DNA of 64,000 nucleotides from a virus. Shown here one piece after another: positions 5,469-45,660 of the stretch. A program made the translations under genes and the position numbers. Every line of letters begins with the position of its first letter. The first letter of the stretch is position 1. Under the pieces are notes generated by a model that saw only the letters and a program-made list of their open reading frames with translations, ran no database searches and was not told the DNA's origin. The stretch is from IMG/VR virus record IMGVR_UViG_3300037047_000121. One strand, 5' to 3'.

Positions 5469-5475
5469 GTAGACC
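5443..5475 (+). promoter_or_regulatory. phage bipartite promoter-like motif (GGGATCATC-N13-GAGTAGACC)
   Basis: conserved motif upstream of ATG 5508. Confidence 0.45.
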
Positions 5476-22472: not shown

Positions 22473-22501
22473 TCCTACTCGAAATGCCTAGGGGATGATC
22501 C
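22473..22501 (-). promoter_or_regulatory. phage bipartite promoter-like motif (reverse orientation)
   Basis: CCTACTC-N12-GGATGATCC on + strand, upstream of the minus-strand gene start 22426. Confidence 0.4.
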
Positions 22502-22516
22502 GGAAAAACCTGGGGG

Positions 22517-29738: not shown

Positions 29739-29776
29739 GTGTGGTCTCCTCTTGTTCTATCCCTCTGAGGGACTAT

Positions 29777-30256
29777 TCAGGGTGTGCTGGGGGTAAGCCC
29801 GGACTTGGGGGCACTCTGTTCCTGGTGCCACTCTTCCACAATGGGGATGAGATCGAAGGGTCTCGTGGCTCGGTACAGTGAGAACCCCAGTGAGATCCTG
29901 TGGCATCCGTTCGAGAGCAGCCACTTGTACCACTCTCGGCGTGTCGGTCCCTGTCCCTGCACGAAACAGATGTCGAGCAGCATCCCGTCCCGGCGGGTGT
30001 CGTACTCTTTGTGGAGGGAGGACACGGCGAAGGTCTGACGCACGAGAGTATCGATGACGGGGACGTGTTCGTACATGGGGCAGAGGAGATCGCCCTGGAT
30101 GGGTCGATCCCACCGTTTCGTTTTAGCCTTCTGACGCTCATCGTCGGCCATCTGGCGGATGGTTTCCTGCCAGTGGGGCTTTACGGTACGCCATCCGGAC
30201 TTGTCCATGTCGACGATGCCCTGTCTGGTGTACCCTGTGGTTCGCTTCTTGCCCAT
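29777..30256 (-). CDS. hypothetical protein (159 aa)
   Basis: ORF with basic N-terminus. Confidence 0.55.
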   Translation of the reverse strand: MGKKRTTGYTRQGIVDMDKSGWRTVKPHWQETIRQMADDERQKAKTKRWDRPIQGDLLCPMYEHVPVIDTLVRQTFAVSSLHKEYDTRRDGMLLDICFVQGQGPTRREWYKWLLSNGCHRISLGFSLYRATRPFDLIPIVEEWHQEQSAPKSGLTPSTP

Positions 30257-32335: not shown

Positions 32336-32366
32336 GACTACTCTGAGAGAGGCAGAAATGATCCCG
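32336..32366 (-). promoter_or_regulatory. phage bipartite promoter-like motif
   Basis: GGACTACTC-N12-AAATGATCCC. Confidence 0.5.
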
Positions 32367-32579
32367 CTACTTTCGGTAGTCCTCGAAATCGGGGCACTTC
32401 TGAGCCTTCTCCAGCGTCATCCGGAACTCCTCCTGCGAGGGCGCGAACGTCCCCGAGAGGTAGTAGTGACGCATACGGCAGGTGAGACTCCAACTCGTCC
32501 CCGGGGTCAGATCGGACATGTCGGGCATGCCCGAGTCGAAGTCGAAGTGCTTGCACGAGATGCAGGTTCGCTCGTTCAT
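32367..32579 (-). CDS. zinc-ribbon small protein (CISC...C)
   Basis: ORF. Confidence 0.5.
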   Translation of the reverse strand: MNERTCISCKHFDFDSGMPDMSDLTPGTSWSLTCRMRHYYLSGTFAPSQEEFRMTLEKAQKCPDFEDYRK

Positions 32580-32589
32580 GGTCTCACCC

Positions 32590-32928
32590 TTACCGGGAAA
32601 GGAAGCGCAGGATCGACCGCACCTCCGTCATGGGCAGGCTGCCCAGATCCTCTCTGAGCGACTTGAGTCTGCGAGCCAGCATGTCTCGGACCTTCTGCTC
32701 GAACTCGCGAATCTCAGTTTCCGACGTGATGTGCCTCGCGTAGGGACACCCGCTCCAAAAGCCGGACCTCCCACCGACCATCTTGCTGGTTTTCCGCATG
32801 TACCGCGCCACGCCGACCGAGATCTGGGTGTCCGTCGTGCGGGTCACACGCTCGACGCCGGTGAACAGCCCCGTGGCATCGAACAGCGCCACCAGATCAC
32901 CTTTCTGCACCTGACTCAGATCGCGCAT
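32590..32928 (-). CDS. hypothetical protein (112 aa)
   Basis: ATG with GAGGGAGGG RBS, 20 nt after motif. Confidence 0.55.
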   Translation of the reverse strand: MRDLSQVQKGDLVALFDATGLFTGVERVTRTTDTQISVGVARYMRKTSKMVGGRSGFWSGCPYARHITSETEIREFEQKVRDMLARRLKSLREDLGSLPMTEVRSILRFLSR

Positions 32929-32948
32929 CGTAGTCCCTCCCTCAGGAA

Positions 32949-32979
32949 GGACTACTCGCTAGGGGTGTGAAATGATCCC
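32949..32979 (-). promoter_or_regulatory. phage bipartite promoter-like motif
   Basis: GGACTACTC-N12-AAATGATCCC. Confidence 0.5.
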
Positions 32980-32993
32980 AGGAAAGGGACTCG

Positions 32994-33359
32994 TCAGGGG
33001 CACTCGCAGGCTCCCAGCGCCTGCATCACCTTGCGCTGATCCACGTGGGAGAGCAGCGCGTAGTCCGCCTCCGCCTGCTGCCGGATCTCGACCGCCCTCG
33101 GGTCGTTCAGGACCACCCCCACCGCCATCCGGCTGAACATCTTCACCACCTGCGTCCACGACTCCACCACCTGCACGCTCACCTCGACCTCCACCGCCTC
33201 GATCCGAGGGTCGCCCTTCACAGCCTGAAGAGCCTTCCTCTTGGTGGCGAAGTGACGCGCCGTCTCGATGTGATCCGTGCTCAGGCGGTTGGCGTCCGAG
33301 TCCACGACGTTGTGGGCCACGAAAGACCCGTCGTTCCATCTCAGCACCCAGCGTCGCAT
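32994..33359 (-). CDS. hypothetical protein (about 121 aa)
   Basis: internal ATG (MRRWVLRW) with GAGGGGAGGGG RBS; N-terminal part of the listed 238-aa ORF is Arg/Gly-rich overlap artefact. Confidence 0.5.
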   Translation of the reverse strand: MRRWVLRWNDGSFVAHNVVDSDANRLSTDHIETARHFATKRKALQAVKGDPRIEAVEVEVSVQVVESWTQVVKMFSRMAVGVVLNDPRAVEIRQQAEADYALLSHVDQRKVMQALGACECP

Positions 33360-33373
33360 GGTCACCCCTCCCC

Positions 33374-33688
33374 TCAGCCGTTCGGGCAGCGGGCGAACCA
33401 GCCCGCGATGTAGGCCACAGGCACGTACAGATCCGTGAAACGACCGATTTCCCGCGTGTGGCCGAGACGATGCCGCTGTCGCAGCACCCACTGGATGTCC
33501 TCCTCGTCCCGAGCCTCCAGGTGCATCACGGGGATGATCATGAAGGACCCACCCTCGATCTCCATCATGGCGCAGTAGTCCTTGGGCCGCTCGTAAGGCA
33601 GATCCACGTCCCAGTCCACGCCCTCGACCTTCAGTTCCAGGCCGAAAAGCACGAACAGGTACTTGAGCCGATCCACGCTGAATTCCAT
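33374..33688 (-). CDS. hypothetical protein (104 aa)
   Basis: ORF. Confidence 0.5.
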   Translation of the reverse strand: MEFSVDRLKYLFVLFGLELKVEGVDWDVDLPYERPKDYCAMMEIEGGSFMIIPVMHLEARDEEDIQWVLRQRHRLGHTREIGRFTDLYVPVAYIAGWFARCPNG

Positions 33689-33700
33689 GACTGTCCCCCC

Positions 33701-33955
33701 TCAGCCCCACGAGACCGTGGTGTAGACCTGGAACATGCTCACCGAGCCCGGCACATGCTCCTCAGCCGACTTGACGCGGAAACTGCGAGCCAGAAGGCTC
33801 ACGATGTCCCGGCTCCAGAGCAGCCCCCGAAACTTGACCTGGAACACTCCGATCGGAACCAGCGCCGAGATCGCCGCCTCCACCTCCGACAGCGTGTACA
33901 CGCGCGGACTCTGATGCGCCCGCCGGGCAGTGACTCGGGCCTCGTTGGCATCCAT
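33701..33955 (-). CDS. hypothetical protein (84 aa)
   Basis: ORF after promoter motif. Confidence 0.5.
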   Translation of the reverse strand: MDANEARVTARRAHQSPRVYTLSEVEAAISALVPIGVFQVKFRGLLWSRDIVSLLARSFRVKSAEEHVPGSVSMFQVYTTVSWG

Positions 33956-33978
33956 CCGTCAGTCCCTCCTTGTCAGAA

Positions 33979-34009
33979 GGACTACTCAGGACCCCTCCGA
34001 AATGATCCC
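33979..34009 (-). promoter_or_regulatory. phage bipartite promoter-like motif
   Basis: GGACTACTC-N12-AAATGATCCC. Confidence 0.5.
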
Positions 34010-34012
34010 AGA

Positions 34013-34249
34013 TTACTCGGGGCGCTTCACCCCCCGGCCGTCCATATCCGCCGCCAGGGCCTCCAGACGGTCCGCCTGACGCCGCAGCCGACGCACCTCG
34101 TCTCGCAGCCTCTGTGCGAACGTGGGCGACGCCCTGCGGGCCTTCTGACGCTCGCGACGCTCCGCCTGACGGGCCTCCAACTCCACCCGCTTGGCCTCCA
34201 TCGCCGCAGCCACCTGAGCCTTCGCCTTGTCGAAAATCCCCATCCTCAT
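34013..34249 (-). CDS. Arg-rich coiled-coil small protein
   Basis: ORF; ATGA overlap with upstream gene. Confidence 0.45.
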   Translation of the reverse strand: MRMGIFDKAKAQVAAAMEAKRVELEARQAERRERQKARRASPTFAQRLRDEVRRLRRQADRLEALAADMDGRGVKRPE

Positions 34250-34722
34250 CCTCCTCCTCGACGCCGTTCCAGATACGAATGGATCTCAGGGGGGACGAAC
34301 AGCTTCGCCCGATCGACCTCCCCGAAAGAAAGTAGCTCCCTCACCACCGACGAAGAGACGTGTGCCACGTCGTCCCCAGTCGGAATGAACACCGTCGAGA
34401 CGCCCAGCGCCTTGTTCACATGCGCCTGAGCCATCTCAGCCTCGAAATCGCTCACCGTCCGAAGCCCCCGGATGAGCACCCTCGGCACCTTGGGCTTGTA
34501 GTCCACCAGCAGACCGTCCCAGACCTCGATCTGTACCTCCCAGCCCAGGGTCATGTCCCGGAGCATCTCCCGACGCTCCTCCGCCGGGAACAGCGGAGTC
34601 TTCTTCGGATTCGTGGCCACCAGCACCACCAACCGCGGGAACAGCGGCAGCACCTCCGCCAGTGCCCGCTGATGGCCCTTGGTCGGGGGATCGAACGTCC
34701 CCGCGTAGATAGCTAGCACCAT
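34246..34722 (-). CDS. phosphopantetheine adenylyltransferase (CoaD)-like cytidylyltransferase-family protein
   Basis: AIYAGTFDPPTKGH (H/TxGH), LIRGLRTVSDFEAE and ISSSVVREL match the CoaD pattern. Confidence 0.6.
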   Translation of the reverse strand: MVLAIYAGTFDPPTKGHQRALAEVLPLFPRLVVLVATNPKKTPLFPAEERREMLRDMTLGWEVQIEVWDGLLVDYKPKVPRVLIRGLRTVSDFEAEMAQAHVNKALGVSTVFIPTGDDVAHVSSSVVRELLSFGEVDRAKLFVPPEIHSYLERRRGGG

Positions 34723-35096
34723 GACCCCTCCCCCCTCAGCGGGCCAGCCGCCGCACCTTCTGAGCCGCCTCCTTCAGGTAGGGCAGCCACGTCCGCGGGT
34801 ACGGGCTCGGACGCGGGGCATCCGCCAACGGCGGCTCCGGCACCCGACCCTCGCTCGTCGCGAGGTACAGGGCTACGTGGGTCCGCAGCGCCCGCAGTTC
34901 CCCACCCGCCTCGTCCGCCCGCCCGCTCCTTGTACAGGAGCACCATGTCCATCAGCGACAGGGTCAGCAGCCCCTTGCCGTTGCACAGCGGGCACGTCCG
35001 CTCCACCCCACCGACCCCATCGCTCCACTCGTGCTCGCCGTACACGTGACCCTTGCCCTCACAGTACGGGCACTGGCTGACGGTCTGGCTGGACAT
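34713..35096 (-). CDS. DnaJ-type zinc-finger (CxxCxGxG x2) protein with Gly/Ala-rich tail
   Basis: CPYCEGKG...CPLCNGKG; low-complexity tail may be real or reflect a frameshift. Confidence 0.4.
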   Translation of the reverse strand: MSSQTVSQCPYCEGKGHVYGEHEWSDGVGGVERTCPLCNGKGLLTLSLMDMVLLYKERAGGRGGWGTAGAADPRSPVPRDERGSGAGAAVGGCPASEPVPADVAALPEGGGSEGAAAGPLRGEGSWC

Positions 35097-35120
35097 GGGC
35101 TCCCTCGCCCCCTCACACCA

Positions 35121-35151
35121 GGACTACTCTGTGCCTGGAGAGAGTGATCCC
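35121..35151 (-). promoter_or_regulatory. phage bipartite promoter-like motif
   Basis: GGACTACTC-N13-AGTGATCCC. Confidence 0.45.
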
Positions 35152-35159
35152 AGCGTCAG

Positions 35160-35467
35160 TCGTTCTCAGTGGGCGTGAGTCAGTCCCCATGAGCCTGACA
35201 GCATGAGCCATGAGTGTGCCGTGGTGAGTCCAGGAGTGTGGGTGGGAGCGTGTGAGAATTCTCATAGGCCATGAGACATGAGTGCATCAGAGTCTCATGT
35301 CTCACCACGAGACACCAAAACCGCTTGAAAAACTCATCAACCGGGGTCCCCATGCCGAAAAAGCCGTATTGAATCTGCATCGAAAATGAAACGCCTGAAA
35401 TCGAATCGGGTGTCTGTGGCCTAGGGGAATCCCCCTGGTGCCGCTCCCGATGCGTCTTGGCGGGCTA
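35160..35467. other. 0.3-kb ORF-free region with CATGAG repeats and perfect 10-bp hairpin (gagacatgag...ctcatgtctc, about 35270-35300)
   Basis: no credible ORF; candidate terminator or small RNA between two minus-strand transcription units. Confidence 0.35.
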
Positions 35468-35854
35468 TTACTCCTCGCTCAGGGCGGGAGCGCTCAGTTT
35501 GCCCCGGAGGTAGGCCGTGATCCGGTAGGTGGGGATGTCCCGCATGGCGATGCTCAGGGCGAGTTCCCGGGACGCGGGGTCCTTTGCCTTGTGCGCGGCC
35601 TGCAGGATCTCCCAGTCCACCTGATGCAGGCGGGTGGAGATGGTTTTGGCCAGGTTGAAGGTGGCCACGTCGGGGAGGGAGATCGTCGCGTGGAGGATCG
35701 CGGCGACCACATCACCGAAGAACCGGGGCCAGTTCATCCGGGGAACACCGGGCGGGACGCGCTCCGCGAACCAGTCGAGCGCGGTGCCGTGGAAGTCCTG
35801 AACGCGAACCGTACCGTCCTTGTGGATCGTAACGTCGTTGCCGTAGGTCGCCAT
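35468..35854 (-). CDS. hypothetical protein (128 aa)
   Basis: ORF after promoter motif. Confidence 0.55.
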   Translation of the reverse strand: MATYGNDVTIHKDGTVRVQDFHGTALDWFAERVPPGVPRMNWPRFFGDVVAAILHATISLPDVATFNLAKTISTRLHQVDWEILQAAHKAKDPASRELALSIAMRDIPTYRITAYLRGKLSAPALSEE

Positions 35855-35875
35855 GTGTTTCTACCCTCCTTACCT

Positions 35876-35906
35876 GGACTACTCTGGGTTGGTCTGGAAT
35901 GATCCC
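35876..35906 (-). promoter_or_regulatory. phage bipartite promoter-like motif
   Basis: GGACTACTC-N13-AATGATCCC. Confidence 0.5.
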
Positions 35907-36026
35907 AGATTGTTTCGGGCAGATGGCTAGAACCGCTGCGATGGATTTTTGAAACCTGGATTGGAAACTGAAGTTTTCCGATTTTGTTGTCCTGAAATTT
36001 TTGGGGCTCGAAGTTGAATCGGGGTG

Positions 36027-36320
36027 CTAGGGCTTGTTTGGTTTCCAGTGGTCGATTTCCACGTCGTAGATGCTCACGTAGGCTTCGGCTCCGTGAATGG
36101 TCACGGGGATCTCGGCGGTATAGATCATGTGGGTGTCCCCTGAGCTGTGGTCTTGTTCCTGATCCAGGGTGACGAGGATGGGGACGTTCTCTGTGATGGT
36201 TCCGTCGGGCCAGAGGACGGAGGCGGTTCCGTTCTCTTTGATGTCCTGCGACTCCCAGTGGGGGCATTCGGTGGTGTCGTAGACACCGGAGATTTTCCGC
36301 TCTGATTTGCTGAATGCCAT
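36027..36320 (-). CDS. hypothetical protein (97 aa)
   Basis: ORF. Confidence 0.5.
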   Translation of the reverse strand: MAFSKSERKISGVYDTTECPHWESQDIKENGTASVLWPDGTITENVPILVTLDQEQDHSSGDTHMIYTAEIPVTIHGAEAYVSIYDVEIDHWKPNKP

Positions 36321-36323
36321 GGT

Positions 36324-36809
36324 TCAGTTTCCCATCACGATCTTGTGGATCCCGTAGGTGTGGGGGACCACCGTGAGTCCCGCGGCTTCGAGATCCCGGC
36401 ACAGGGATTCCTCGGATGGGATCTCCGCCAGTTTCTCCCACTTGTGGATGCGTCCCTCGTACCGGGGGTCTCCGAAGCTGGCGATCTTGTAACCTGAGAC
36501 CAGGACCTTGTTCCCCCCGCTGTCTTCGAACAGGTAGACCTTGCTGTCCCGGATCGTCAGACCGTTCAGCAGACAGCCAAAAAGCGAGTCCTCGTCCTGT
36601 CCGAAACGCTCCAGGATGTCCGGGCGGATGAATTCGCGTGCGTCGGGGGTGTACCTCTCCCGGCCGCAGGTCGGGCAGTACCTCATACCCGCGCCGTTTC
36701 CGGGCTTCGGGCAGTGGCACCACTGCTCGGCGGGGGTGTCCTGTTGGAACATGGAGTTGAGGGGCAACTGCACGCCGACGATCACGGTTGTCCAATAGGT
36801 TGTTCCCAT
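36324..36809 (-). CDS. hypothetical protein with CHC...CPTC zinc-binding pairs
   Basis: ORF. Confidence 0.55.
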   Translation of the reverse strand: MGTTYWTTVIVGVQLPLNSMFQQDTPAEQWCHCPKPGNGAGMRYCPTCGRERYTPDAREFIRPDILERFGQDEDSLFGCLLNGLTIRDSKVYLFEDSGGNKVLVSGYKIASFGDPRYEGRIHKWEKLAEIPSEESLCRDLEAAGLTVVPHTYGIHKIVMGN

Positions 36810-36816
36810 GGGCAGG

Positions 36817-37242
36817 TTACTCCGTCTCCGGCAGGTTCCGGAATCGGGCGAACGAGTCGAGGGTGTACTGATCGAGGATGGCGCGGGTCAAAACGCCGCC
36901 CGTTTCTCCCCGGTCTTTCAAAAACTGGATCCCATCCCGGAGGCTGGCCTGAAGTTCCTGGAGTTCCTTGTTGGTGAGACCGTCCCCGTGGTCGAACTTG
37001 CTCCACAGGGTGCTCTTCTTGGCGGAACGATCCAGCACGAAGGCTGGTGGTTTACCTTGAGCCAGATACCCGAAGGTATCTCGGTCGAACCTGACGGTGG
37101 CGAGCAGTCCCCCGCTTTCTCCTCGGGTGGAGAGGAACAGGATCCCCTGGTTGGCGGATCTGATGAGTTCCTGGATCTCGTCCGGGGAGAGGAGGCCAGG
37201 GTGCTGGTCGTATTTGGCCCACAGGGCGCTGATGTCATTCAT
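36817..37242 (-). CDS. protein with internal tandem duplication (two copies of about 45 aa)
   Basis: internal ATG with AGGAG RBS; repeats LWAKYDQHPGLLSPDEIQELIRS..FLSTRGESGGLLATV and LWSKFDHGDGLTNKELQELQAS..FLKDRGETGGVLTRA. Confidence 0.5.
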   Translation of the reverse strand: MNDISALWAKYDQHPGLLSPDEIQELIRSANQGILFLSTRGESGGLLATVRFDRDTFGYLAQGKPPAFVLDRSAKKSTLWSKFDHGDGLTNKELQELQASLRDGIQFLKDRGETGGVLTRAILDQYTLDSFARFRNLPETE

Positions 37243-37381
37243 ACGAGGAACTCCTGGGGGTCTCCCCCGTGCAGGACGAAGGTGTCGAGGACGAGACGGC
37301 CGTCGCCCAACAGGGAAACCGCGACGTAGGTGCCTTTGTCCACGATCATGTTGTTGATCCTCGGAGACTCTCCTATCCGGG

Positions 37382-37720
37382 TCAGCCGCGGTAGTTCGTG
37401 CCACCGACTTTCGAGGTGGCCTTGTGGAACACGGTCACTCCGCCTTCGGGGCTGTGGAACATGAGCGGGATTCCCGGGGACACGTTCGGGTCGAACGGGA
37501 CCTGGATCCCCTGGTAGACGGATCCAGGCACGAGGTTGAGGAACTGCACCGTGTTGTCCTTGATCCCGGCGCAGATCATGGGGCCTTCGGGACCGATGCC
37601 GTGGGTGGCGGCCCAGACGACATCACCCGGGTGCAGATTGTCGATCTGCTGCACGTTCCAGATTTTGGAGGGGTCACTCTGGAAAGAAACGACCAACTGA
37701 TGTGTTACCTGCATGTTCAT
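37382..37720 (-). CDS. hypothetical protein (112 aa)
   Basis: ORF. Confidence 0.55.
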   Translation of the reverse strand: MNMQVTHQLVVSFQSDPSKIWNVQQIDNLHPGDVVWAATHGIGPEGPMICAGIKDNTVQFLNLVPGSVYQGIQVPFDPNVSPGIPLMFHSPEGGVTVFHKATSKVGGTNYRG

Positions 37721-37775
37721 ACCTCATCCATCCAACGTTTTCGGGTCTACTCTGAACCCTGGGGAATGATCTGAT

Positions 37776-38177
37776 TTAATCGCGCGAGTAATCCAACATC
37801 AGTTGGTGCTGCCGGAGGCTCATGGAGATGTACGAGCCCTCGGGGCTACGCATCCCGGCCTGGATCAGGGATGCGAGTTCCCGAAGTCGCGCCAGATCCA
37901 AATCCCGGTCGTGCACCTCGAACTCGTCCCCCGCCAAACGGGGCTTCAACGGCTTGTCATGTCGCCACCGTCGCCACCTGGGAAGGCGTTCGTACTCCTG
38001 AAGCCGTTTCTGGTAATTCTCCATCATTTCCTGGAGGAATTCGTCGCGGCGTCTCTGTGCCTCTCGGTCCTGTTCTTCCCAGAACAGTTCTCGGGACTCG
38101 ATCTGGGCATTCAGCCGTCTCAGGATCTGGCTGAGCATGTTCCGATCGGAGGTTGGGACATTGACGCATCCATTCAT
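37776..38177 (-). CDS. hypothetical coiled-coil protein
   Basis: ATGA overlap with upstream gene stop. Confidence 0.5.
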   Translation of the reverse strand: MNGCVNVPTSDRNMLSQILRRLNAQIESRELFWEEQDREAQRRRDEFLQEMMENYQKRLQEYERLPRWRRWRHDKPLKPRLAGDEFEVHDRDLDLARLRELASLIQAGMRSPEGSYISMSLRQHQLMLDYSRD

Positions 38178-38464
38178 GGGATGTACACCGTCTTGCATAC
38201 TGAACACGTCACGGTTTCGCCGCTCTCGTCCCAGACGAGAAGGTCGACCGCCCGGTTCATGCATCGGGGGCAACCATCGTCCTCGGGGAGCAGATCCATG
38301 TGGCCGACGATCTCGTACTTGTCGACCCCGGGGATAGGGGACAGGGATCGACAGTTGTCCCAGAAGACATGTCCCTTGTCGTCCAGCACGGTGCCCAGCG
38401 TCCCCGGGGGAACGGGGTCGGGGTCGTCCATGAGGATGAGGCGGATGCGGTCACCGGGCTTCAT
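38174..38464 (-). CDS. hypothetical protein with CPRC...CSVC
   Basis: ORF. Confidence 0.55.
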   Translation of the reverse strand: MKPGDRIRLILMDDPDPVPPGTLGTVLDDKGHVFWDNCRSLSPIPGVDKYEIVGHMDLLPEDDGCPRCMNRAVDLLVWDESGETVTCSVCKTVYIP

Positions 38465-38473
38465 GTCCTCCTC

Positions 38474-38818
38474 CTACCAGCGCAGGATTTCGCGAAGCTG
38501 CTCCCAGGTCGTCCGCTGCCGGGGCTTGAAGTTCGGCAGGGGCGGCAGTTCGTTCTTGCCGGGGAACACCTGGAGGTGCCACGTGTCCAGACTGTGGCCC
38601 ACTTCCACGACCTGGAAACCACGCTTTTCGAGTACCTCGATGACGAGGTTGTCATCGAAGTCGGAAGTCGTGCTCGGCCACCCCTGAGGGTGGAACAGAT
38701 CGAGCGGTCGTCCGAACTGGCGCTCCTGTGGGGTCCACTGGGACAGATCGACGAAAGCCCGTACTGCGGACACGTCCTCGTCCGAGATGACGCCAAGACG
38801 CATGTTGATCACTGCCAT
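38474..38818 (-). CDS. hypothetical protein
   Basis: internal ATG; weak RBS. Confidence 0.4.
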   Translation of the reverse strand: MAVINMRLGVISDEDVSAVRAFVDLSQWTPQERQFGRPLDLFHPQGWPSTTSDFDDNLVIEVLEKRGFQVVEVGHSLDTWHLQVFPGKNELPPLPNFKPRQRTTWEQLREILRW

Positions 38819-38832
38819 TCTGAGGGTTCCTT

Positions 38833-39342
38833 TCAACGGCTCAGAAGGTTGTAGGTTTCCCAGTCCTCGTAGCGAACCGTCACGACGTCGCCTTTTCGGT
38901 CGCCCCACATGGGGCCGCAGAGTCCGTCGATCACCGGCTGCCCCTGGAGTTCCGGCTTGAGGTGTCGGTAGTTCGGACCCGTGGATTCACCCGTGGCTGT
39001 GTAGCGTGCGAGGAGCGCCTCACGGGAACGGAACGTCTCAATGCCGTTCTTGCTGACGACCAGATAGTGGGTTTCGGTTCCCGGCAGGGCGGCCTCCAGG
39101 GAAGTCACGATCGCGCTCTTCGTGGCTTTGCACCCGAACCCGACCTGCCGTCCGCGGATTTTGCCCTCGACGCTGACCTGCCCGTCCGCGTGCAGCTTGA
39201 TCCCCAGGTTGTTGTCGGCGTTCTCGTACCAGAGGATGTCCCCCTCGACGAACCCGCGGATCGACCCGTGGGGAACCCCGAGCGCATTCCAGATGCTGGG
39301 GTACGGGATTTCGAGTTCCTGCTTGAGTCGCTCCAGAATCAT
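38833..39342 (-). CDS. hypothetical protein (169 aa)
   Basis: ATG with GAGGGAGG RBS directly after promoter motif. Confidence 0.55.
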   Translation of the reverse strand: MILERLKQELEIPYPSIWNALGVPHGSIRGFVEGDILWYENADNNLGIKLHADGQVSVEGKIRGRQVGFGCKATKSAIVTSLEAALPGTETHYLVVSKNGIETFRSREALLARYTATGESTGPNYRHLKPELQGQPVIDGLCGPMWGDRKGDVVTVRYEDWETYNLLSR

Positions 39343-39361
39343 GAGATACCTCCCTCTGAAT

Positions 39362-39392
39362 GGACTACTCGGATGCCGGACGAGATGATCCC
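39362..39392 (-). promoter_or_regulatory. phage bipartite promoter-like motif (followed by a degenerate divergent copy)
   Basis: GGACTACTC-N12-AGATGATCCC. Confidence 0.5.
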
Positions 39393-39418
39393 GACGGATC
39401 GTTCCGCGGAAACTCCGC

Positions 39419-39751
39419 TCAGCGGGTGGGGTTCTCTTTCGGGACACAGAGGGCAAAAGCATCTGGGTCGACCTGGGTTGCCAGGAAAGCACCACCCCCC
39501 GGGGGGATGCAGATGTACGGGGTGTTTCTCACACGCCGCAACTGGAACTGCGTGCCGAGTTCCATTCCTCGCTGGTGGCAGTCCTGGGAGCGCAAGGCTT
39601 TGATGCACCGCTGCTCATCCTGCTGACTGTTGAAATCGAGCACCGCCATGAACAGCGTCGTCAGTCCGACGGTAAGGGCAATGAGGCATGCCATCGAGGT
39701 AAGGAAAAAGAACAGGATCGGGCACGACTTTGTCTGGTTTGTATCCGTCAT
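39419..39751 (-). CDS. small membrane protein (one TM helix)
   Basis: hydrophobic stretch ILFFFLTSMACLIALTVGLTTLFMAVL. Confidence 0.5.
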   Translation of the reverse strand: MTDTNQTKSCPILFFFLTSMACLIALTVGLTTLFMAVLDFNSQQDEQRCIKALRSQDCHQRGMELGTQFQLRRVRNTPYICIPPGGGAFLATQVDPDAFALCVPKENPTR

Positions 39752-39760
39752 GGGTTTCCG

Positions 39761-40036
39761 TTACCGATTGGAGTTGTCGACGATGGAGTCCGGATTCGGC
39801 TTCAATATCAGCAGGAGTCGTTCGAGATGCAGTGCCTTCTGTCGTCCGTGAACGAAAAACGTGGTAAATCCGACTCGAACGCTCAGGGTACTCCAGGAGC
39901 GCCAGAAGAACCAGGAGTCGACGTCTGCCTGAATGTCGCCCTCCCACATGAGGTCCGCCTGGAACCGCACTTTCCCTTTTTCATTAGAGAGCGTGACGAT
40001 CAGATCTGGGGTTACGGTGCAGATCGGGAGAGTCAT
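39761..40036 (-). CDS. hypothetical protein (91 aa)
   Basis: ORF. Confidence 0.5.
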   Translation of the reverse strand: MTLPICTVTPDLIVTLSNEKGKVRFQADLMWEGDIQADVDSWFFWRSWSTLSVRVGFTTFFVHGRQKALHLERLLLILKPNPDSIVDNSNR

Positions 40037-40049
40037 CTTGTTCTCCTGT

Positions 40050-40310
40050 TCAGGTAGCGTTCTGCCGTCGTGCCAGAATGGCCGTTGACACCGCGAGCGC
40101 CAGTGCCCTCAGGCACGTCGGGGAAACGATCAGGTCGGAGTCCCTGATATCCTGCTGGAGGGTTTCGGTGTCGACCGGCCACTGGTCGAAGGGAACCCCG
40201 GGGGCCACGTAGGTCTGGTACCAGTCGAGAGCGGACTGGCGATTGAACCAGTCCTCTCGGATGTCCCCATTGCTGTAGAGGATGAACCCGTCGTCCTCGA
40301 ACCGCGTCAT
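40050..40310 (-). CDS. hypothetical protein (86 aa)
   Basis: ORF. Confidence 0.5.
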   Translation of the reverse strand: MTRFEDDGFILYSNGDIREDWFNRQSALDWYQTYVAPGVPFDQWPVDTETLQQDIRDSDLIVSPTCLRALALAVSTAILARRQNAT

Positions 40311-40525
40311 TCCCGACCTCCGTCGATCACCCGCAGCCAGTCCGGGGTACCCGGGACCCTTTTTCCGGGACGTTCCGGTGAAGGGATGGGGGTCGCCTCC
40401 ACCTGCACTTGCACGGTCACCTCGGGGTTTGGGTACACGAACCTGCGGGGATTCTGTTTTTCACCAGCCCACGTTTCCGCGAGTTGTGCCCACTCTCGCC
40501 CACAGCGCTCCCAGTCGTCCATCAT
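40307..40525 (-). CDS. hypothetical protein (72 aa)
   Basis: ATGA overlap. Confidence 0.45.
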   Translation of the reverse strand: MMDDWERCGREWAQLAETWAGEKQNPRRFVYPNPEVTVQVQVEATPIPSPERPGKRVPGTPDWLRVIDGGRE

Positions 40526-40785
40526 GCCCTTGCAACTCCGCTCTCATCGTCCGAAACGATGAAGAACTCGACGCCCTCGTCCTGGTGGTTTTCGACCCAG
40601 TCCGCGGCGATGTCCAGATCCATGGTCGGGTCGTGCCGCTCCATGAACATGCGACCGTCGGTGTAGCAGGTGTAACCGAACCGAGGATCTTTGTCGATCC
40701 AGAGTCGAGGGGTGCCCTCTGCCGTCACCAGTACTTTTTTGACCAAGTCAGTCCTCCCGATCGGCCTCGATCTCGTCGTGCGCAA
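40522..40785 (-). CDS. hypothetical protein (87 aa)
   Basis: ATGA overlap. Confidence 0.45.
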   Translation of the reverse strand: MRTTRSRPIGRTDLVKKVLVTAEGTPRLWIDKDPRFGYTCYTDGRMFMERHDPTMDLDIAADWVENHQDEGVEFFIVSDDESGVARA

Positions 40786-41083
40786 CCAGCTTCATGCGGT
40801 ACGACACGTGGGAGATGTAGATGCTCTCCGCTTTCTGTCTGTCTCCCCAAAACTCCCAGGCCCCTCTGGAGTATCGTGCCCAGACGCGATCGTCGCTCCG
40901 CACCTCCTGTTTCGGGTTCACCAGGAAGTTGGCGTCCGGGTAAACCCCCGAGTGCCCCGCCGGGAGGACGAACACCTCCAGGGTATCAGTTTCCAGCGGG
41001 AGCAGGAACAGCGCCGGACCCGGTGCCCTGGCCAGGGTTCTGGTGTTCCAAATGACCTGTGTGAGCAGAGCCTCGAAATCCAT
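40748..41083 (-). CDS. hypothetical protein (111 aa)
   Basis: ATG right after promoter motif; remainder of the listed 333-aa ORF is antisense artefact. Confidence 0.5.
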   Translation of the reverse strand: MDFEALLTQVIWNTRTLARAPGPALFLLPLETDTLEVFVLPAGHSGVYPDANFLVNPKQEVRSDDRVWARYSRGAWEFWGDRQKAESIYISHVSYRMKLVAHDEIEADRED

Positions 41084-41100
41084 GTGCGTCCTCCTTATGG

Positions 41101-41131
41101 GATCTACTCTGTCCGGGTTTGAGATGATCCC
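41101..41131 (-). promoter_or_regulatory. phage promoter-like motif, minus-direction half of divergent pair
   Basis: ATCTACTC-N12-AGATGATCCC. Confidence 0.5.
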
Positions 41132-41162
41132 GGGATCATTCCGCGGGAACTCCGAGTAGTGG
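41132..41162 (+). promoter_or_regulatory. phage promoter-like motif, plus-direction half of divergent pair
   Basis: GGGATCATT-N13-GAGTAGTGG; the two upstream elements abut as palindrome GATGATCCCGGGATCATT. Confidence 0.5.
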
Positions 41163-41182
41163 TGGTAGGAGGGCAGGAAACC

Positions 41183-41737
41183 ATGAGCCAGAACTGGATC
41201 GAGTGCGGGTTGCCGTGGAGGAACTACGAGTTCCCGAACCTGGATGCTCCCGATCTTCAGGAGGAGATGAGAGCGGATTTCGGGGAGACGTTCGACGAGG
41301 TCGTCGCGCGGATCGATTTCGACCTGATCACTGGGATCAAAGAGGATATCTCCGCGGATCTCGTGGACGCCGGATGGGATCCGAACAGCCCGGAGTTCGA
41401 AAAGGAAGTTCAGCTTCAGTACGAGAAGGAGATGCGACGGCTGGGCAACGACGTGATGTTCAAGGACAACGAGAAGCGCCGCACGATGTTGGAGTGGCGA
41501 CGGGACCACCCCAAACTGCTGGTTTTCAACCAGGAGTGCGCCCGGCTGAACGAGGAACTGAACCGGAGGTGTTTCAAGGGAGCGGGTCTCGCCTTGCCGG
41601 GAACCCAGATCGAGATCGAGGGTGGCAAGCGGCTGCTGATCGGGGATATCAATCCGCTGGGCGGAATCTGCGACGACTGCGCCGGGATCGACGACGACAC
41701 GATCATCGTCCGGTACCGCGTGTTCGACCTGACCTGA
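41183..41737 (+). CDS. hypothetical protein; C-terminus paralogous to 18094..18663
   Basis: ATG with AGGAGGG RBS. Confidence 0.55.
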   Translation: MSQNWIECGLPWRNYEFPNLDAPDLQEEMRADFGETFDEVVARIDFDLITGIKEDISADLVDAGWDPNSPEFEKEVQLQYEKEMRRLGNDVMFKDNEKRRTMLEWRRDHPKLLVFNQECARLNEELNRRCFKGAGLALPGTQIEIEGGKRLLIGDINPLGGICDDCAGIDDDTIIVRYRVFDLT

Positions 41738-41748
41738 GGAGAAACACA

Positions 41749-41997
41749 ATGACCCGTGCAGAGAGACTGCGCTCCGAGGCCGAGGGGATACTGTGTGTCA
41801 ACAACTGCCTCACCACGATGAACAGCATCGGGTGGGCTCGCGGCATCCTGGATCGGGACCTGGGCCTCTGCCTTTCCGAGAGAGGCGAGTGTTCCGAGGA
41901 CTGGTTCGAAGGGTACCAGGAGGGTTGGTGCTCGATGGACGATGCCCTGAAGGCGGAGGCATGGGTGAACAGCCTCCGTGCCTCAGTTTCGGAGTAG
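41749..41997 (+). CDS. small protein, paralog of next gene
   Basis: GAGGAG RBS; GWARGILDRDLG...EGWCSMDDALKAE. Confidence 0.5.
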   Translation: MTRAERLRSEAEGILCVNNCLTTMNSIGWARGILDRDLGLCLSERGECSEDWFEGYQEGWCSMDDALKAEAWVNSLRASVSE

Positions 41998-42017
41998 TCC
42001 TAGAGAGGATGTCTGTC

Positions 42018-42260
42018 ATGCCGGACATGAAACCGTCGGAGCAGCGGCTTTTTGACGCGGTGATGATTTTCAGTTCCCCTACGTCCAGTCCCCGTCAGGT
42101 GGGCTGGGCAACGGGAGTCATCGATCGGTACGAGCCCGGCAACGAGTTGTTCCCGCACCTTCTCCAAAAAGAGTGGCAGGAAGGTTTCGCCGCGGGATGG
42201 GCTGAAATGGACGAGGCCCTCACGACGGAACTGGGATCATTTCGGCGGGGTCCTGAGTAG
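42018..42260 (+). CDS. small protein, paralog of previous gene
   Basis: GWATGVIDRYEPG...AGWAEMDEALTTE. Confidence 0.5.
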   Translation: MPDMKPSEQRLFDAVMIFSSPTSSPRQVGWATGVIDRYEPGNELFPHLLQKEWQEGFAAGWAEMDEALTTELGSFRRGPE

Positions 42261-42262
42261 TC
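42233..42262 (+). promoter_or_regulatory. phage bipartite promoter-like motif (overlaps 3' end of upstream gene)
   Basis: GGGATCATT-N12-GAGTAGTCC. Confidence 0.5.
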
Positions 42263-42278
42263 CTTGCAAGGAGGGAAC

Positions 42279-42530
42279 ATGAAGATCACGCAGCTTCAGG
42301 AGACCCCGCACCCGGTGTTCGAGGCCGAGGTCACGTCCAAGAGGGACATCTGGGCGCTGGCCGACTGGTTGATGGAAAGGGATCGGCCGGAGGACATGTC
42401 CATCTCCCTGGACGGGTGCATGTTTACGTTCCGGACACGGGTCGAGGCATGCCAGTTCGCCCTCGGTCTCACGAAGGCTCTGGGTTTCGTCAACGTTTTC
42501 GAAGCTCGTGAGCTGGGGATTTCCGCATAA
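42279..42530 (+). CDS. hypothetical protein (83 aa)
   Basis: ATG with AAGGAGGGAAC RBS. Confidence 0.5.
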   Translation: MKITQLQETPHPVFEAEVTSKRDIWALADWLMERDRPEDMSISLDGCMFTFRTRVEACQFALGLTKALGFVNVFEARELGISA

Positions 42531-42539
42531 GGAGGGGAC

Positions 42540-42743
42540 GTGAACGACTACGGAAGCAACCAGAAGAACGGTCATCCAGGAAGTCCGTCGGCTGATCCAG
42601 GACAAGCCCTGGTTTCGGGGCATCTGCCTGGACCAGCTTCCCACGGAGCAGGAGTGTCAGGAGAACTTCCAGGGCTCCGTGGACACGGTGATGATGGACA
42701 CGATGTACTGGGATGCCCCCACCGAAGAGATGTTCGGGTAAGC
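42540..42743 (+). pseudogene. small gene with apparent +1 frame change (GTG start frame differs from protein-like frame)
   Basis: AAGGAGGGG RBS + GTG 42540 in frame A; high-GC3 protein-like frame B (..VIQEVRRLIQDKPWFRGICLDQL..) lacks a start codon. Confidence 0.35.
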
Positions 42744-42753
42744 TGACTGATCT

Positions 42754-42784
42754 GGGATCATTTCTGGGCTCCGCGGAGTAGTTT
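42754..42784 (+). promoter_or_regulatory. phage bipartite promoter-like motif
   Basis: GGGATCATT-N13-GAGTAGTTT. Confidence 0.5.
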
Positions 42785-42802
42785 CTCTGGATGGAGGAAC
42801 TC

Positions 42803-43213
42803 ATGAGCCCGGAACAGCTTTTCGAGATCGGGATGCAGATCCGGCAGGAAGTTTCTCATTTGGGGGATCTCGAAAACCCTACGGAGAAAGCGTTCCCTCC
42901 GGATCTGGAAACGGCTTGCGCGGTCGCGTCGTACCGACTGGCGAAGGCGCTCCAGGAAAAGGGTCTCCCGGCGGTTCTCGTGCAGGGGCTGTTTTTTCGG
43001 CCTCAAAATGACTGGGGACTCGATCACTGCTGGGTCGAAATCGCGGGACAGATTCTGGACGTGACTGCCACTCAGTTCAACGTCAAGGAAAAGGTGCTGA
43101 TCGTTCCCGCGACGGATCCCCGGTTTCGCCCGATCCACCGAGGGGACGCGGCACTGAAAGACCTGACGGAGTGGCCGAGCGAGCAGCAGCCCTGGAACTA
43201 TTACGAGGAGTAA
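42803..43213 (+). CDS. hypothetical protein (136 aa)
   Basis: ATG with GGAGG RBS. Confidence 0.55.
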   Translation: MSPEQLFEIGMQIRQEVSHLGDLENPTEKAFPPDLETACAVASYRLAKALQEKGLPAVLVQGLFFRPQNDWGLDHCWVEIAGQILDVTATQFNVKEKVLIVPATDPRFRPIHRGDAALKDLTEWPSEQQPWNYYEE

Positions 43214-43336
43214 AAAATGAACAAGCGTCCCGGACATCCGAACAATCTCGTGGCCACCCCACTCGACGAGGACATGACGGAGATGTTCGGATCTCCATTC
43301 TGTTTCAACGGGGTAAATAAAATTCACCCCTGATCA

Positions 43337-43717
43337 GTGGGGGGGCGATACTCCGGGCCTACTGCTATGACCCGGCCGAGACAGAGCGTTCTGTGGAAGA
43401 AGGTCGGGTCAAGCACCGCGAGACTCAGCAGCGGCTGGAAAAAGCCCGGAGTGAATCTCCTCTCCACCAGCAACGATATATGCCCGACCTGCAGCCATTC
43501 GATGAAGAAGGAGTGCGGCAGTTCCTCGAAGCCGGGAGTTTCCGGAACATCGGAAGGGAAGCCTCCCAGGACGGCCCTGCGGGTGATGGCTTTCCTCGCC
43601 AAGTTCCTGTCCCCTGGAGAAGACCCCGTCAAAACGGTGGCAGGGCTGATGGCCACGGCGGGGTGGGACGTCGACCCCGAGGTCATGGACTGGGTCGACA
43701 GCGATCCAGAGGACTAG
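43337..43717 (+). CDS. hypothetical protein; start uncertain
   Basis: higher GC3 than the overlapping 43393 frame; C-terminal DPEVMDWVDSDPED. Confidence 0.35.
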   Translation: MGGRYSGPTAMTRPRQSVLWKKVGSSTARLSSGWKKPGVNLLSTSNDICPTCSHSMKKECGSSSKPGVSGTSEGKPPRTALRVMAFLAKFLSPGEDPVKTVAGLMATAGWDVDPEVMDWVDSDPED

Positions 43718-44253
43718 TTCTCAACGGGACTGGCCATTTTGCGGTAACCCTGAGTTCTTGCCAGCAACTCGCGGATCTCATCCTCCGGGGCGCCGGTACT
43801 CCGAACGTTGGCCTCCACGAGCACCTCGGTCATGGTAAGGTCGTGGGCCTCTTCAAAGGCAGGGTCGACCTGTCCTTTCATCTCCCGGAGGAGAGTTTCC
43901 CGATCTTTCCGGGAGATGAAAAGCAACCTGTGGGGCCAAGAAGCCATCCGGTAATACATTCCCCTGGGGAAACGTTCTTTGACCGCAGCCTCGATAGACC
44001 CCATCACCAGGGAAAGCTGATGCCGCCAACAAGAGAAAACGCGGTCGGGAGACAATCGAACCTCAAAGGGACGATCCATTTTGCTGATCATCCCCCCGAA
44101 ATCCATGTGCGCGATCTCTTGCTTTTCAATTTGTATGGGCCGGAACAACCGTCTGGTTGCAACGTCCTCGATCCGCTGTCTGGCAACACTTGGGTGGCAG
44201 ATGTGCATTTTCAGTTTGGCATCATCGGCATACCGGAAATAGACCCATTTCAT
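43714..44253 (-). CDS. hypothetical protein (179 aa), lone minus-strand gene inside + block
   Basis: ATG with GGAAGGAG RBS; degenerate promoter-like motif upstream (44263-44300). Confidence 0.55.
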   Translation of the reverse strand: MKWVYFRYADDAKLKMHICHPSVARQRIEDVATRRLFRPIQIEKQEIAHMDFGGMISKMDRPFEVRLSPDRVFSCWRHQLSLVMGSIEAAVKERFPRGMYYRMASWPHRLLFISRKDRETLLREMKGQVDPAFEEAHDLTMTEVLVEANVRSTGAPEDEIRELLARTQGYRKMASPVEN

Positions 44254-44332
44254 TCAAAAGCTCCTTCCCTCTGGATCCTACTCCAACGGGAACGGAAAGA
44301 GACCCAAAGACCTGGAACAGGGTATAAGTGAT

Positions 44333-44363
44333 GGGATCATTCCGGATCCTTTCAGAGTAGAAG
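44333..44363 (+). promoter_or_regulatory. phage bipartite promoter-like motif
   Basis: GGGATCATT-N14-GAGTAGAAG. Confidence 0.45.
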
Positions 44364-44383
44364 CTCTGAAAGGGGTAGAAACC

Positions 44384-44590
44384 ATGAAGAACGATTACAG
44401 ACTCCAGGCCGCCGCCAAGCTGATCCCGGATCCGGCGGTACAGCGCCAGGATTCTCTGACGGATCAGATGGTGACCCTGATGGATCTCGCCCGCCGCGCG
44501 GGCTGCTACGACGCCGCCGACTGGCTCCAGCAGGAGTGGCTGCGGCGCTGCGAACTTCACCAGCCGGGCGTTGCCCGCAATCATCGGTAA
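44384..44590 (+). CDS. hypothetical protein (68 aa)
   Basis: ORF after promoter. Confidence 0.5.
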   Translation: MKNDYRLQAAAKLIPDPAVQRQDSLTDQMVTLMDLARRAGCYDAADWLQQEWLRRCELHQPGVARNHR

Positions 44591-44624
44591 CGGTATGCAG
44601 ACAAGGTCAGAGGAGAACGGTTCG

Positions 44625-44999
44625 ATGCACACCGAGGTCGAGCACATCTGTGCCCTGCTTCAGGGAGACCAGATCAATGAATGCTCCTGCTCCCTCCGGG
44701 CACGGCGCTCCGGGCGAGTCCTGACGCACAGGAGCCCCCTCCTGTGGCATCTTCGTCCCGGTCCGGGCCGCCCGGCGCTCGTCTCCGAGCCCACCGGCGA
44801 CTGGTACGACGGAGATGATGACGGCCACGAGTGGCAGCTTCGGTACGCGATCTTTTTCTGCCCCGGAGACCGCACCGTGGACGGTGCGGTCGGGTATGAG
44901 ATCTATACCGACGACGGACGCGGGAACGGGGATCAGATCGGGTTCGAGTCGAACCTCATCGATGCCATCGAGACCTGCGAGAGCGGTCGGCTCCAGTAG
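44625..44999 (+). CDS. hypothetical protein
   Basis: ATG with GAGGAG RBS (alternative ATG 44595). Confidence 0.5.
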   Translation: MHTEVEHICALLQGDQINECSCSLRARRSGRVLTHRSPLLWHLRPGPGRPALVSEPTGDWYDGDDDGHEWQLRYAIFFCPGDRTVDGAVGYEIYTDDGRGNGDQIGFESNLIDAIETCESGRLQ

Positions 45000-45042
45000 C
45001 CGTTATACGTTCGAAGTTTTCTGCAACGTATAACTCCCATCT

Positions 45043-45073
45043 GGGATCATTCCCCCAGATCCAGAGTAGTCCT
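45043..45073 (+). promoter_or_regulatory. phage bipartite promoter-like motif
   Basis: GGGATCATT-N13-GAGTAGTCC. Confidence 0.5.
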
Positions 45074-45372: not shown

Positions 45373-45615
45373 ATGGCGGCTCCGCGGATTCCGACGCTGT
45401 TCCTGGGAGACATGGTCGAGGTCAAGTCAGGTCGACACGAGGGGAAACGGGGGACGGTCATCGAGGTCATCCCGGATCTCGGAAAGGATCAGAAACCCGA
45501 TCCGAAGATCGTCATCCAGCAGGATGGGGGACATACCCTCAAGGTGTCCGCAATCGAAACCCGCCTCGTGAAGCGCGGTAGCGTGCTCCCCAACGTTCCT
45601 TCGGACGAAGAGTAG
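45373..45615 (+). CDS. small KOW-like protein
   Basis: GDMVEVKSGRHEGKRGTVIEV resembles a KOW motif. Confidence 0.45.
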   Translation: MAAPRIPTLFLGDMVEVKSGRHEGKRGTVIEVIPDLGKDQKPDPKIVIQQDGGHTLKVSAIETRLVKRGSVLPNVPSDEE

Positions 45616-45660
45616 GTCCAATCATCCCTCCCTTGGAGTAGACCCCGGGGAGGAGGTGCT

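Follow-up and report, generated by a model that had tools for sequence, protein, structure and literature searches.

We report a two-part sequence signal that recurs in a 64,000-nucleotide (nt) stretch of viral DNA, IMG/VR virus record IMGVR_UViG_3300037047_000121 (hereafter the window), in which the box GGGATCAT, 14 bases and the hexamer GAGTAG stand together ahead of approximately 20 gene groups. These sites are very probably promoters. In the explanation that we consider the probable one, these approximately 20 promoters are read by the host core RNA polymerase carrying a phage sigma factor of the extracytoplasmic function (ECF)-like type, and the gene for such a factor that lies in the window itself, at 28627-29499, is likely to encode their reader. 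We infer promoter function, the reader, the start of transcription and its timing from sequence comparisons, which are laid out below.

In the window consensus, cTGGGATCAT(y)(y)C-N11-(c)aGAGTAG(tcc), two conserved boxes enclose a near-fixed and non-conserved spacer, as in the bipartite promoters of the sigma-70 family, whose hexamers stand about 15-18 nt apart; the boxes are dissimilar and show neither dyad nor direct-repeat symmetry. The original prediction, made from the letters of the window, had described such a bipartite motif, and it is real: six exact and 17-20 looser sites stand against an expectation near zero. Specifically, exact GGGATCATT-N10-15-GAGTAGTCC occurs six times in the window and not once in 100 dinucleotide-preserving shuffles. 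Taken singly, the GGGATCATT and GAGTAGTCC halves are only mildly enriched, and therefore the signal resides in their pairing. A loose search (GGGATCA with at most one mismatch, N14-15, GAGTAG) returned 17 sites where, by our own estimate, approximately 0.1 would arise by chance, and these sites, measured from their first G through the last base of GAGTAG, span 28 nt in 13 cases and 27 nt in four. By exact pair counting, GGATCA-N15-GAGTA(G) is present in 15 window sites. With a two-block weight matrix, 18 sites reached a score of 16 or more, where Markov shuffles predict 0.07, and real sites (15-39) stood clear of the noise (below 10); as the matrix had been trained on these sites themselves, the independent evidence is that of the exact-pattern and loose searches. 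All 17 main coordinates of the original prediction were borne out, 16 as strong sites and the one at 57552 as a weak site, and three sites were added to them, at 37747-37773 (-), 29773-29800 (-, weak) and 60802-60828 (-, intragenic and doubtful). The four copies that had been listed as degenerate fared unevenly: those at 44263 (-) and 45618 (+) are plausible weak sites, whereas 55250 (-) has GAGTAG only and 63405 (-) has only the upstream half, within coding sequence. In this last case the half-site at 63405-63432 (-) codes for VDHSHTEDSR, by which the product of gene 63401-63982 is extended at its C terminus; the stop codon of that gene overlaps the ATG that follows. In a 188-kb relative (L075, 3929-3956) the full motif stands at the homologous gene junction, and the window copy therefore looks like a lost promoter through whose remnant the upstream protein now reads.

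The sites are placed as promoters of the sigma-70 family are, upstream of genes, co-oriented with them and mostly between them. A self-trained gene call gave approximately 120 genes for the window, which is 89% coding and 11% non-coding. Rather than being equally frequent in coding or antisense DNA, 15 of 19 sites lie wholly within the 11% that is non-coding (approximately 1e-11 by our own binomial estimate), and of the 20 sites 18 can be assigned a gene downstream, with which all 18 are co-oriented and none antisense. The claimed strand match with the next gene thus stands; the claim that the motif is always intergenic or at gene ends stands for these 15 and for three further sites that overlap the last codons of the upstream gene, but not for one that is internal to a gene. 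GAGTAG ends 9-48 nt before the start codon, typically 18-36 nt, usually with a GGAGG-type ribosome-binding site in between; a uniform 15-20 nt to the ribosome-binding site had been overstated, as that distance is approximately 5-20 nt. Because this distance varies while the spacing of the boxes is fixed, the arrangement has the anatomy of a promoter. The sites are most concentrated at 29.4-47 kb, where 15 sites serve 45 genes; of the 16 intergenic gaps that measure 35 nt or more, these sites occupy 13. It was therefore an overstatement that the motif precedes most small genes; the sites instead probably head short operons, each of one to five small genes of unknown function. At 41131/41132 two sites stand back to back, exactly where the leftward and rightward arrays diverge, and divergent site pairs are found in relatives as well (L005, L025, L026 and L051).

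Table 1. Motif sites and the proposed sigma factor gene in the window; scores are those of the two-block weight matrix, and -35 denotes the proposed role of the upstream box.
Position	Strand	Feature	Score	Context
2164..2191	+	motif site	32.3	intergenic; next gene 2216-2452
5445..5472	+	motif site	34.9	overlaps last codons of 5202-5468; next gene 5508-6146, start 35 nt downstream
22475..22502	-	motif site, cGGATCAT variant	21.4	next gene 22064-22426, start 48 nt downstream
28627..29499	+	divergent sigma-70-family factor, ECF-like (sigma2 + sigma4), 290 residues		proposed motif reader
29773..29800	-	weak site, GGGCTTAC...GAATAG	15.7	overlaps end of 29777-30256; next gene 29496-29738
32338..32365	-	motif site, exact	35.3	next gene 31669-32316
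32952..32979	-	motif site, exact	36.3	next gene 32590-32928
33982..34009	-	motif site, exact	38.8	next gene 33701-33955
35124..35151	-	motif site	32.8	next gene 34713-35096 (zinc-finger-like CXXC protein)
35879..35906	-	motif site, exact	37.7	next gene 35468-35854
37747..37773	-	motif site, CAGATCAT..., spacing 27	24.5	next gene 37382-37714
39365..39392	-	motif site	34.4	next gene 38833-39342
41104..41131	-	leftward half of divergent pair	34.1	-35 boxes abut (ATGATCCC/GGGATCAT); next gene 40748-41083
41132..41159	+	rightward half of divergent pair	32.2	next gene 41183-41737
42233..42260	+	motif site, exact, in last codons of 42018-42260	38.8	TAG is the stop codon; next gene 42279-42530
42754..42781	+	motif site	32.1	next gene start 42803 (GGAGG 5 nt upstream) or 42791
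44278..44305	-	degenerate site, GGGTCTCTT...GAGTAG, decayed -35 box		before gene 43714-44253; divergent from 44333 (+)
44333..44360	+	motif site	30.2	next gene 44384-44590
45043..45069	+	motif site, exact, spacing 27	37.3	next gene 45106-45360
45614..45641	+	degenerate site, CCAATCATCC...GAGTAG, decayed -35 box		before gene 45661-46059
57552..57579	-	weak site, GATGATCAT...GAGTAG	9.7	next gene 55777-57528 (ribonuclease with RNB and double-stranded RNA-binding domains), start 23 nt downstream
60802..60828	-	doubtful site inside gene 60680-60919	17.0	no start codon after
62087..62113	-	motif site	26.9	HD-domain gene 61512-62078, ATG 9 nt past GAGTAG, no ribosome-binding site (leaderless-like)

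The same signal recurs in related contigs. A scan of IMG/VR for GGGATCAT-N14-GAGTAG gave many single matches, attributable to chance for a pattern of 14 specified bases, together with contigs that held several matches each. These multi-match contigs are diverged relatives and not copies of the window: two genes show 70-75% nucleotide identity, and several proteins are 35-72% identical. In three relatives the density is 2.5-3.8 sites per 10 kb, as compared to 2.7 in the window, a range biased upwards since these loci were fetched around matches. For example, a 188-kb IMG/VR contig (L124), whose sigma factor is 51% identical to that of the window, carries at least 32 sites in 127 kb. Similarly, a 528-kb JGI contig found by way of its sigma gene (L121) has nine sites in 21 kb, all on the strand of the genes, and five of the nine end 20-43 nt before gene starts that the database had called independently. 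Across the relatives, a ribosome-binding site, a start codon and an open reading frame (ORF) of at least 40 codons come within the 60 nt after 74 of 88 sites, as compared to 20% of random positions; the median distance for this set is 23.5 nt. In the logo of the relatives GGGATCAT and GAGTAG are near-invariant and form the conserved core, and positions 11-22 are near-informationless save for a C at position 21; the flanking T9 and TCC are specific to the window. Approximately ten window sites also have a weakly conserved (C/G)-T-(G/A) 6-8 nt past GAGTAG, where the relatives show a weak G-T-G, and a triplet at this distance would fit the region in which transcripts start.

Several observations on the motif and its surroundings stand apart from this core. 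GAGTAG also occurs without the upstream box at gene ends before a next gene, at 6358, 14935, 16408, 17468, 41992 and 45610 on the plus strand and at 55259 on the minus strand, and by our gene calls its TAG is the stop codon at 6358, 14935, 41992 and 45610. Five genes end in GAG-TAG, including the one with the full motif site at 42255, as compared to 1.4 expected. These box-less copies could be a weaker or differently activated class of promoter, or could be chance. At two minus-strand sites, TAGTCCTTCC directly after GAGTAG can pair with the ribosome-binding site GGAGGGACTA (32952-32925 and 33982-33950); as a speculation, such pairing might mask the ribosome-binding site in read-through transcripts and leave it open in transcripts that start at the site. 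A hairpin, GGGGCAAATGACCCC, is conserved after many sites in the 188-kb and 528-kb relatives (L015, L020, L026 and L121), between the presumed start and the ribosome-binding site, and is absent from the window. The tetramer GATC occurs 590 times in the whole window, as compared to approximately 236 expected from base composition, and the motif supplies only about 20 of these.

As expected of an ECF regulon, a sigma factor of the sigma2 plus sigma4 type is encoded in the same window. The protein encoded at 28627-29499 scores 25.2 bits against the Pfam family Sigma70_ECF (curated cut-off 21.1) and matches NCBIfam TIGR02937 over model positions 21-162 of 165 with E=3e-6, below that model's cut-off; an orthologue reaches 1.4e-10. 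A profile of 32 homologues matched sigma-H (PDB 3mzy) over both domains (E=1.5e-5). An AlphaFold2 model has a predicted local distance difference test score of 85, and in a Foldseek search of PDB sigma factors make up 20 of the 25 best matches, including the top 20, with weak E-values and global scores, as expected for two domains on a flexible linker. The family alignment shows region 2 (DVLQEVYKGIL...SFGHYVHMVC.CVLSNYHRK) and the helix-turn-helix of region 4.2. These are preceded by a conserved N-terminal domain of approximately 110 residues (residues 1-110, 28627-28960), beta-rich and then helical, with the pattern LYSR..DG..PV...SARQLL..LTGHPEARHWTFDRYFR.GR and without a match in Pfam or any other family searched. 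The gene stands at the outer end of the leftward array and convergent with it, beside the densest cluster of sites.

This sigma family appears to be phage-specific and is nearly confined to huge-phage contigs. At E <=0.001 there are 329 homologues, some of them on contigs of 402-528 kb, and IMG/VR has 52 loci on contigs of up to 619 kb. Among the approximately 50,000 records of INPHARED there was a single match, an unannotated uncultured phage of 485 kb, and among 185,579 bacterial and archaeal species genomes (one for each species) the family was seen only on three short contigs of metagenome-assembled genomes. The window gene is preceded by small ORFs, and upstream of these lies a tract of approximately 600 bp of G-rich and purine-rich non-coding DNA (27314-27933), which holds two copies of CGGGG..T.TGGGTGTGA.GT, 80 nt apart, and no recognisable promoter. 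The GC skew is +0.27 at 28-30 kb.

Distant orthologues of the sigma factor lie near sites in which the boxes have changed and the geometry has not. These variants were recovered by gapped pair counts near the orthologous genes. In L123, a 402-kb contig whose sigma factor is 42% identical to that of the window, GGTAAC-N15-GAGTAG occurs at approximately ten sites. L130 carries GGGGTTCC-N15-CCGTA(A/T)AG (the GGTTCC-N15-CCGTA type), L139 carries TGGTTGGAGCG...CCGT (GGTTGG...CCGT), and L144 carries GCGGTTG...CCCGTATA (GGTTG...CCGTATA). In L153, a relative of 67% GC, 13 copies of CGATTCTTGGTTAC-N15-TCCGTGGTG (GGTTAC-N15-TCCGT) lie within 12200-19200, and at 11 of the 13 an ATG follows 4-5 nt after the motif with no ribosome-binding site. 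This fixed distance to a leaderless ATG implies that the motif sets the start of transcription, and these copies form a putative leaderless-type promoter family. Common to the variants is a hexamer with GG at its start, then 15 bases, then a pentamer built around GT, which is also the geometry of GGATCA-N15-GAGTA; the sigma gene lies within 10 kb of sites in L121, L123, L130, L139, L144 and L153. Plain k-mer enrichment at the sigma loci was dropped, as it returned mostly codon-driven intragenic words (GGATGAT, GGTCATC and GGGATCA). In L123, many genes within 1-9000 are built of 69-nt (23-residue) tandem repeats, and at 13464-13921 there is a separate 126-nt tandem array, which overlaps two GGTAAC-N15-GAGTAG sites (those at 13630 and 13369).

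We propose that the -35 and -10 elements would be GGGATCAT and GAGTAG, respectively, both recognised by the ECF-like sigma factor bound to the host core RNA polymerase. Transcription would begin approximately 7-9 nt past GAGTAG, giving leaders of about 10-30 nt that include the ribosome-binding site, and a near-leaderless mRNA at 62087. Transcripts of sigma-70-family promoters start 5-9 nt past the -10 box, which the ATG 9 nt past GAGTAG at 62087 and the fixed start-codon distance in L153 would indirectly fit. The sigma factor would be made first, from another promoter, and would then switch on its regulon; since its own gene lacks the motif, such a cascade is the simplest model. The original prediction had suggested recognition by a phage-specific factor, either a phage sigma factor or a phage RNA polymerase. 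The dissimilar boxes, their fixed spacing, co-orientation, conservation and the presence of the sigma gene support recognition by such a factor, and favour the first of its two forms; for the second, no RNA polymerase gene was seen among the 51 window proteins scanned.

The proposal that these promoters are read by some other factor, either a hijacked alternative sigma factor of the host or a second phage sigma factor or activator encoded outside the window, is unlikely, though several observations would suit it. The link between sigma gene and motif is correlative, some sigma loci have no detectable motif, and the GGTAAC, GGTTAC and GGTTCC boxes of the relatives, with CCGT, resemble ordinary bacterial ECF promoters and might be those of host sigma factors. 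Yet the sigma factor encoded beside the densest cluster, and within 10 kb of sites in six relatives, belongs to a family essentially absent from bacterial genomes, and a fast-evolving phage factor more easily explains boxes that shift between phage clades at constant geometry.

A second alternative, which we regard as quite improbable, is that the sites are not promoters at all and are instead the operator of a regulator or an RNA-level signal, such as a processing site or translational operator, in polycistronic 5' regions. The sites do lie near ribosome-binding sites, and few intrinsic terminators were found between operons, so that read-through RNA would carry the motif. Moreover, TAGTCCTTCC can pair with the ribosome-binding site at a few sites (32952 and 33982), and box-less GAGTAG recurs at gene ends. 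Against an operator, however, the boxes lack dyad and direct-repeat symmetry, and against an RNA signal, complementarity between the spacer and the cognate downstream region is no better than with swapped partners (permutation p=0.40), and the window has no Rfam match of the kind that a structured RNA might give. Furthermore, the distance that is fixed is that from box to box, and the one that varies is that to the ribosome-binding site or start, and the L153 variant keeps its fixed distance to start codons that have no ribosome-binding site.

Known promoters of phage-encoded RNA polymerases are single contiguous blocks at the start site. A T7-like single-subunit or phiKZ-like multisubunit polymerase encoded elsewhere in the genome is the least probable reader, and very improbable, since the motif is split by 14 non-conserved bases, no polymerase domain was recognised in the window proteins scanned and jumbo phages with sigma factors of their own are described as having no polymerase of their own (PMC7824862, PMC13282480), even if large window proteins (1003, 771 and 673 residues) belong to no recognisable family and the genome is probably much larger than the 64 kb in view.

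Reading by the phage sigma factor also agrees in several respects with what is known of bacterial ECF factors. Their promoters typically have AAC in the -35 region and a group-specific -10 element such as CGT, and the sigma gene is autoregulated (PMC5758882). As for the group 4 factors, for example Bacillus subtilis sigma-W, -X and -M, the proposed reader has the two domains sigma2 and sigma4, and the promoter is rigidly bipartite, with approximately 16-17 nt between cores (here ATC-N17-AGTA) and G-rich bases before the -35 core. Indeed, the GGTAAC, GGTTAC and GGTTCC boxes of the relatives, with CCGTA, fit the ECF pattern closely.

Nevertheless, a number of points weigh against the phage sigma factor as reader. 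The window boxes, with cores ATC and AGTAG, lack the ECF hallmarks AAC and CGT, and the protein differs from bacterial ECF factors by its extra N-terminal domain, its restriction to phages and its score below the NCBIfam cut-off. Unlike typical ECF genes, the sigma gene has no motif promoter of its own that would allow autoregulation (none scoring at least 8 in 26.8-28.7 kb; for the L121 orthologue, none of 12 or more upstream), and no anti-sigma partner is recognisable, the upstream neighbour 28121-28603 having no Pfam match and the downstream neighbour being convergent. The link to the motif is one of co-occurrence and shared geometry, and the association is not universal in the visible sequence, as the sigma-bearing loci L125, L128, L131, L134 and L135 show no recurrent bipartite motif within 10 kb. 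A comparison of sigma residues across the motif classes gave no readable recognition code or residue-to-base covariation. The small-gene arrays look early, and early genes usually use the host sigma factor. No host-type promoter that might start the cascade was found in the window, where nothing convincing stands upstream of the sigma gene, and in L121 there is one weak candidate (TTGCTT-N16-TAGATT). Finally, the remainder of the genome may hold further sigma or polymerase genes. As the sites head early-looking arrays and no host-type promoter is visible, it is conceivable that the sigma factor might be delivered with the virion or made by some unusual route.

The remainder of the window gives some context for these sites. 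Its GC content is 52-64%, and its recognisable genes encode PhoH, a ribonuclease with RNB and double-stranded RNA-binding domains, an RNA ligase, a nucleoside hydrolase, a cytidylyltransferase, an Rv2179c-like exoribonuclease, an HD protein and a protein resembling the major vault protein. Five of these form an RNA-metabolism set on the minus strand (24978-26636, 46988-47929, 55777-57528, 60127-60687 and 61512-62078), comprising the RNA ligase, PhoH, the RNB ribonuclease with two double-stranded RNA-binding motifs, the Rv2179c-like 3'-5' exoribonuclease and the HD-domain protein; the HD gene has a motif site ahead of it and the RNB ribonuclease gene a weak one. The vault-like gene (52593-55211, minus strand) encodes a protein of 872 residues that matches a vault repeat and, with E=6e-21, the shoulder domain of the major vault protein; such a gene is unusual in a phage, and a box-less GAGTAG stands ahead of it at 55254-55259. 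In L121, a Cas12f1-like or TnpB-like protein of 488 residues is encoded 8 kb from the sigma gene (325-1791, minus strand). Scans of the window for tRNA genes and Rfam families were empty. The cultured phages of INPHARED gave no match to 32-46 kb by megablast or to the ORF of 1003 codons by tblastn; the 1003-residue protein has no IMG/VR relatives, and neither it nor the 771-residue protein has a PDB sequence match. PHROGs and Pfam assigned no functions to the first genes downstream of sites, save for a CXXC zinc-finger-like match in 34713-35096 that is below the Pfam cut-off.

Among the closest known systems are the phage sigma factors with promoter classes of their own, such as SPO1 gp28 and gp33/34, T4 gp55 and phiEco32 gp36. 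As in those systems, the host core polymerase would be redirected to a phage consensus that differs from TTGACA/TATAAT, and a temporal class of transcripts would result. Indeed, the boxes GGGATCAT and GAGTAG have no likeness to the TTGACA and TATAAT of housekeeping sigma-70/sigma-A promoters, as the original prediction had said, and sites of that housekeeping type number zero in 26.5-46.4 kb (4.1 expected) and two in 1-20 kb (4.7 expected). The SPO1, T4 and phiEco32 factors differ from the one described here in consensus and in sigma family. T4 gp55 relies on a -10-like element and the clamp only, whereas both boxes are strongly conserved here, and the sites head small-gene arrays and not obvious late or structural genes. 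T4 middle promoters combine a MotA box at -30 with the host sigma-70 -10 element, by sigma appropriation. They are similar in that an upstream box specific to the phage takes the place of the -35 element and keeps a constant distance to the -10 element; they are unlike the present sites in that the -10 element here would be GAGTAG, in which the position that matches the final T of TAnnnT varies among relatives, which makes the host primary sigma factor an unlikely reader. Of the 51 window proteins scanned, none was recognised as a homologue of MotA or AsiA. The start-associated sequences of cluster K mycobacteriophages are also short conserved motifs that recur just upstream of many small phage genes, but they stand directly at the start codon and replace the ribosome-binding site, whereas the motif here is bipartite, with a separate ribosome-binding site at a variable distance. 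Reviews state that jumbo phages without a polymerase 'likely' use sigma homologues at phage-specific promoters (PMC13282480, PMC7824862), and a survey of huge phages mentions phage sigma-70 genes and no promoter motif (PMC7162821). Our literature search found no published consensus for this uncultivated clade, and searches with the sequence strings matched only unrelated primers. Most likely, this is a new consensus of a known type of system, the phage sigma promoter, in an uncultivated lineage of huge phages.

The mechanism itself would be textbook phage biology and at most a modest surprise for the specialist. A broader suggestion, which we put forward tentatively and regard as rather doubtful, is that a clade of huge phages with genomes of up to approximately 0.6 Mb relies for much of its expression on a sigma family that is specific to phages and has a unique N-terminal domain, and that the promoter boxes of this family have diversified clade by clade at fixed geometry (GGATCA/GAGTAG, GGTAAC/GAGTAG, GGTTCC/CCGTA, GGTTAC/TCCGT and GGTTGG/CCGT). 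If so, the clade-specific variants would be a natural set of possible orthogonal sigma-promoter pairs for synthetic biology. The statement of the reviews on jumbo-phage sigma factors becomes directly testable, with one protein and 45 bp of DNA. Huge phages that are seen only in metagenomes would gain a promoter consensus with a candidate reader, from which operons could be mapped and regulons predicted for hundreds of functionally uncharacterised genes.

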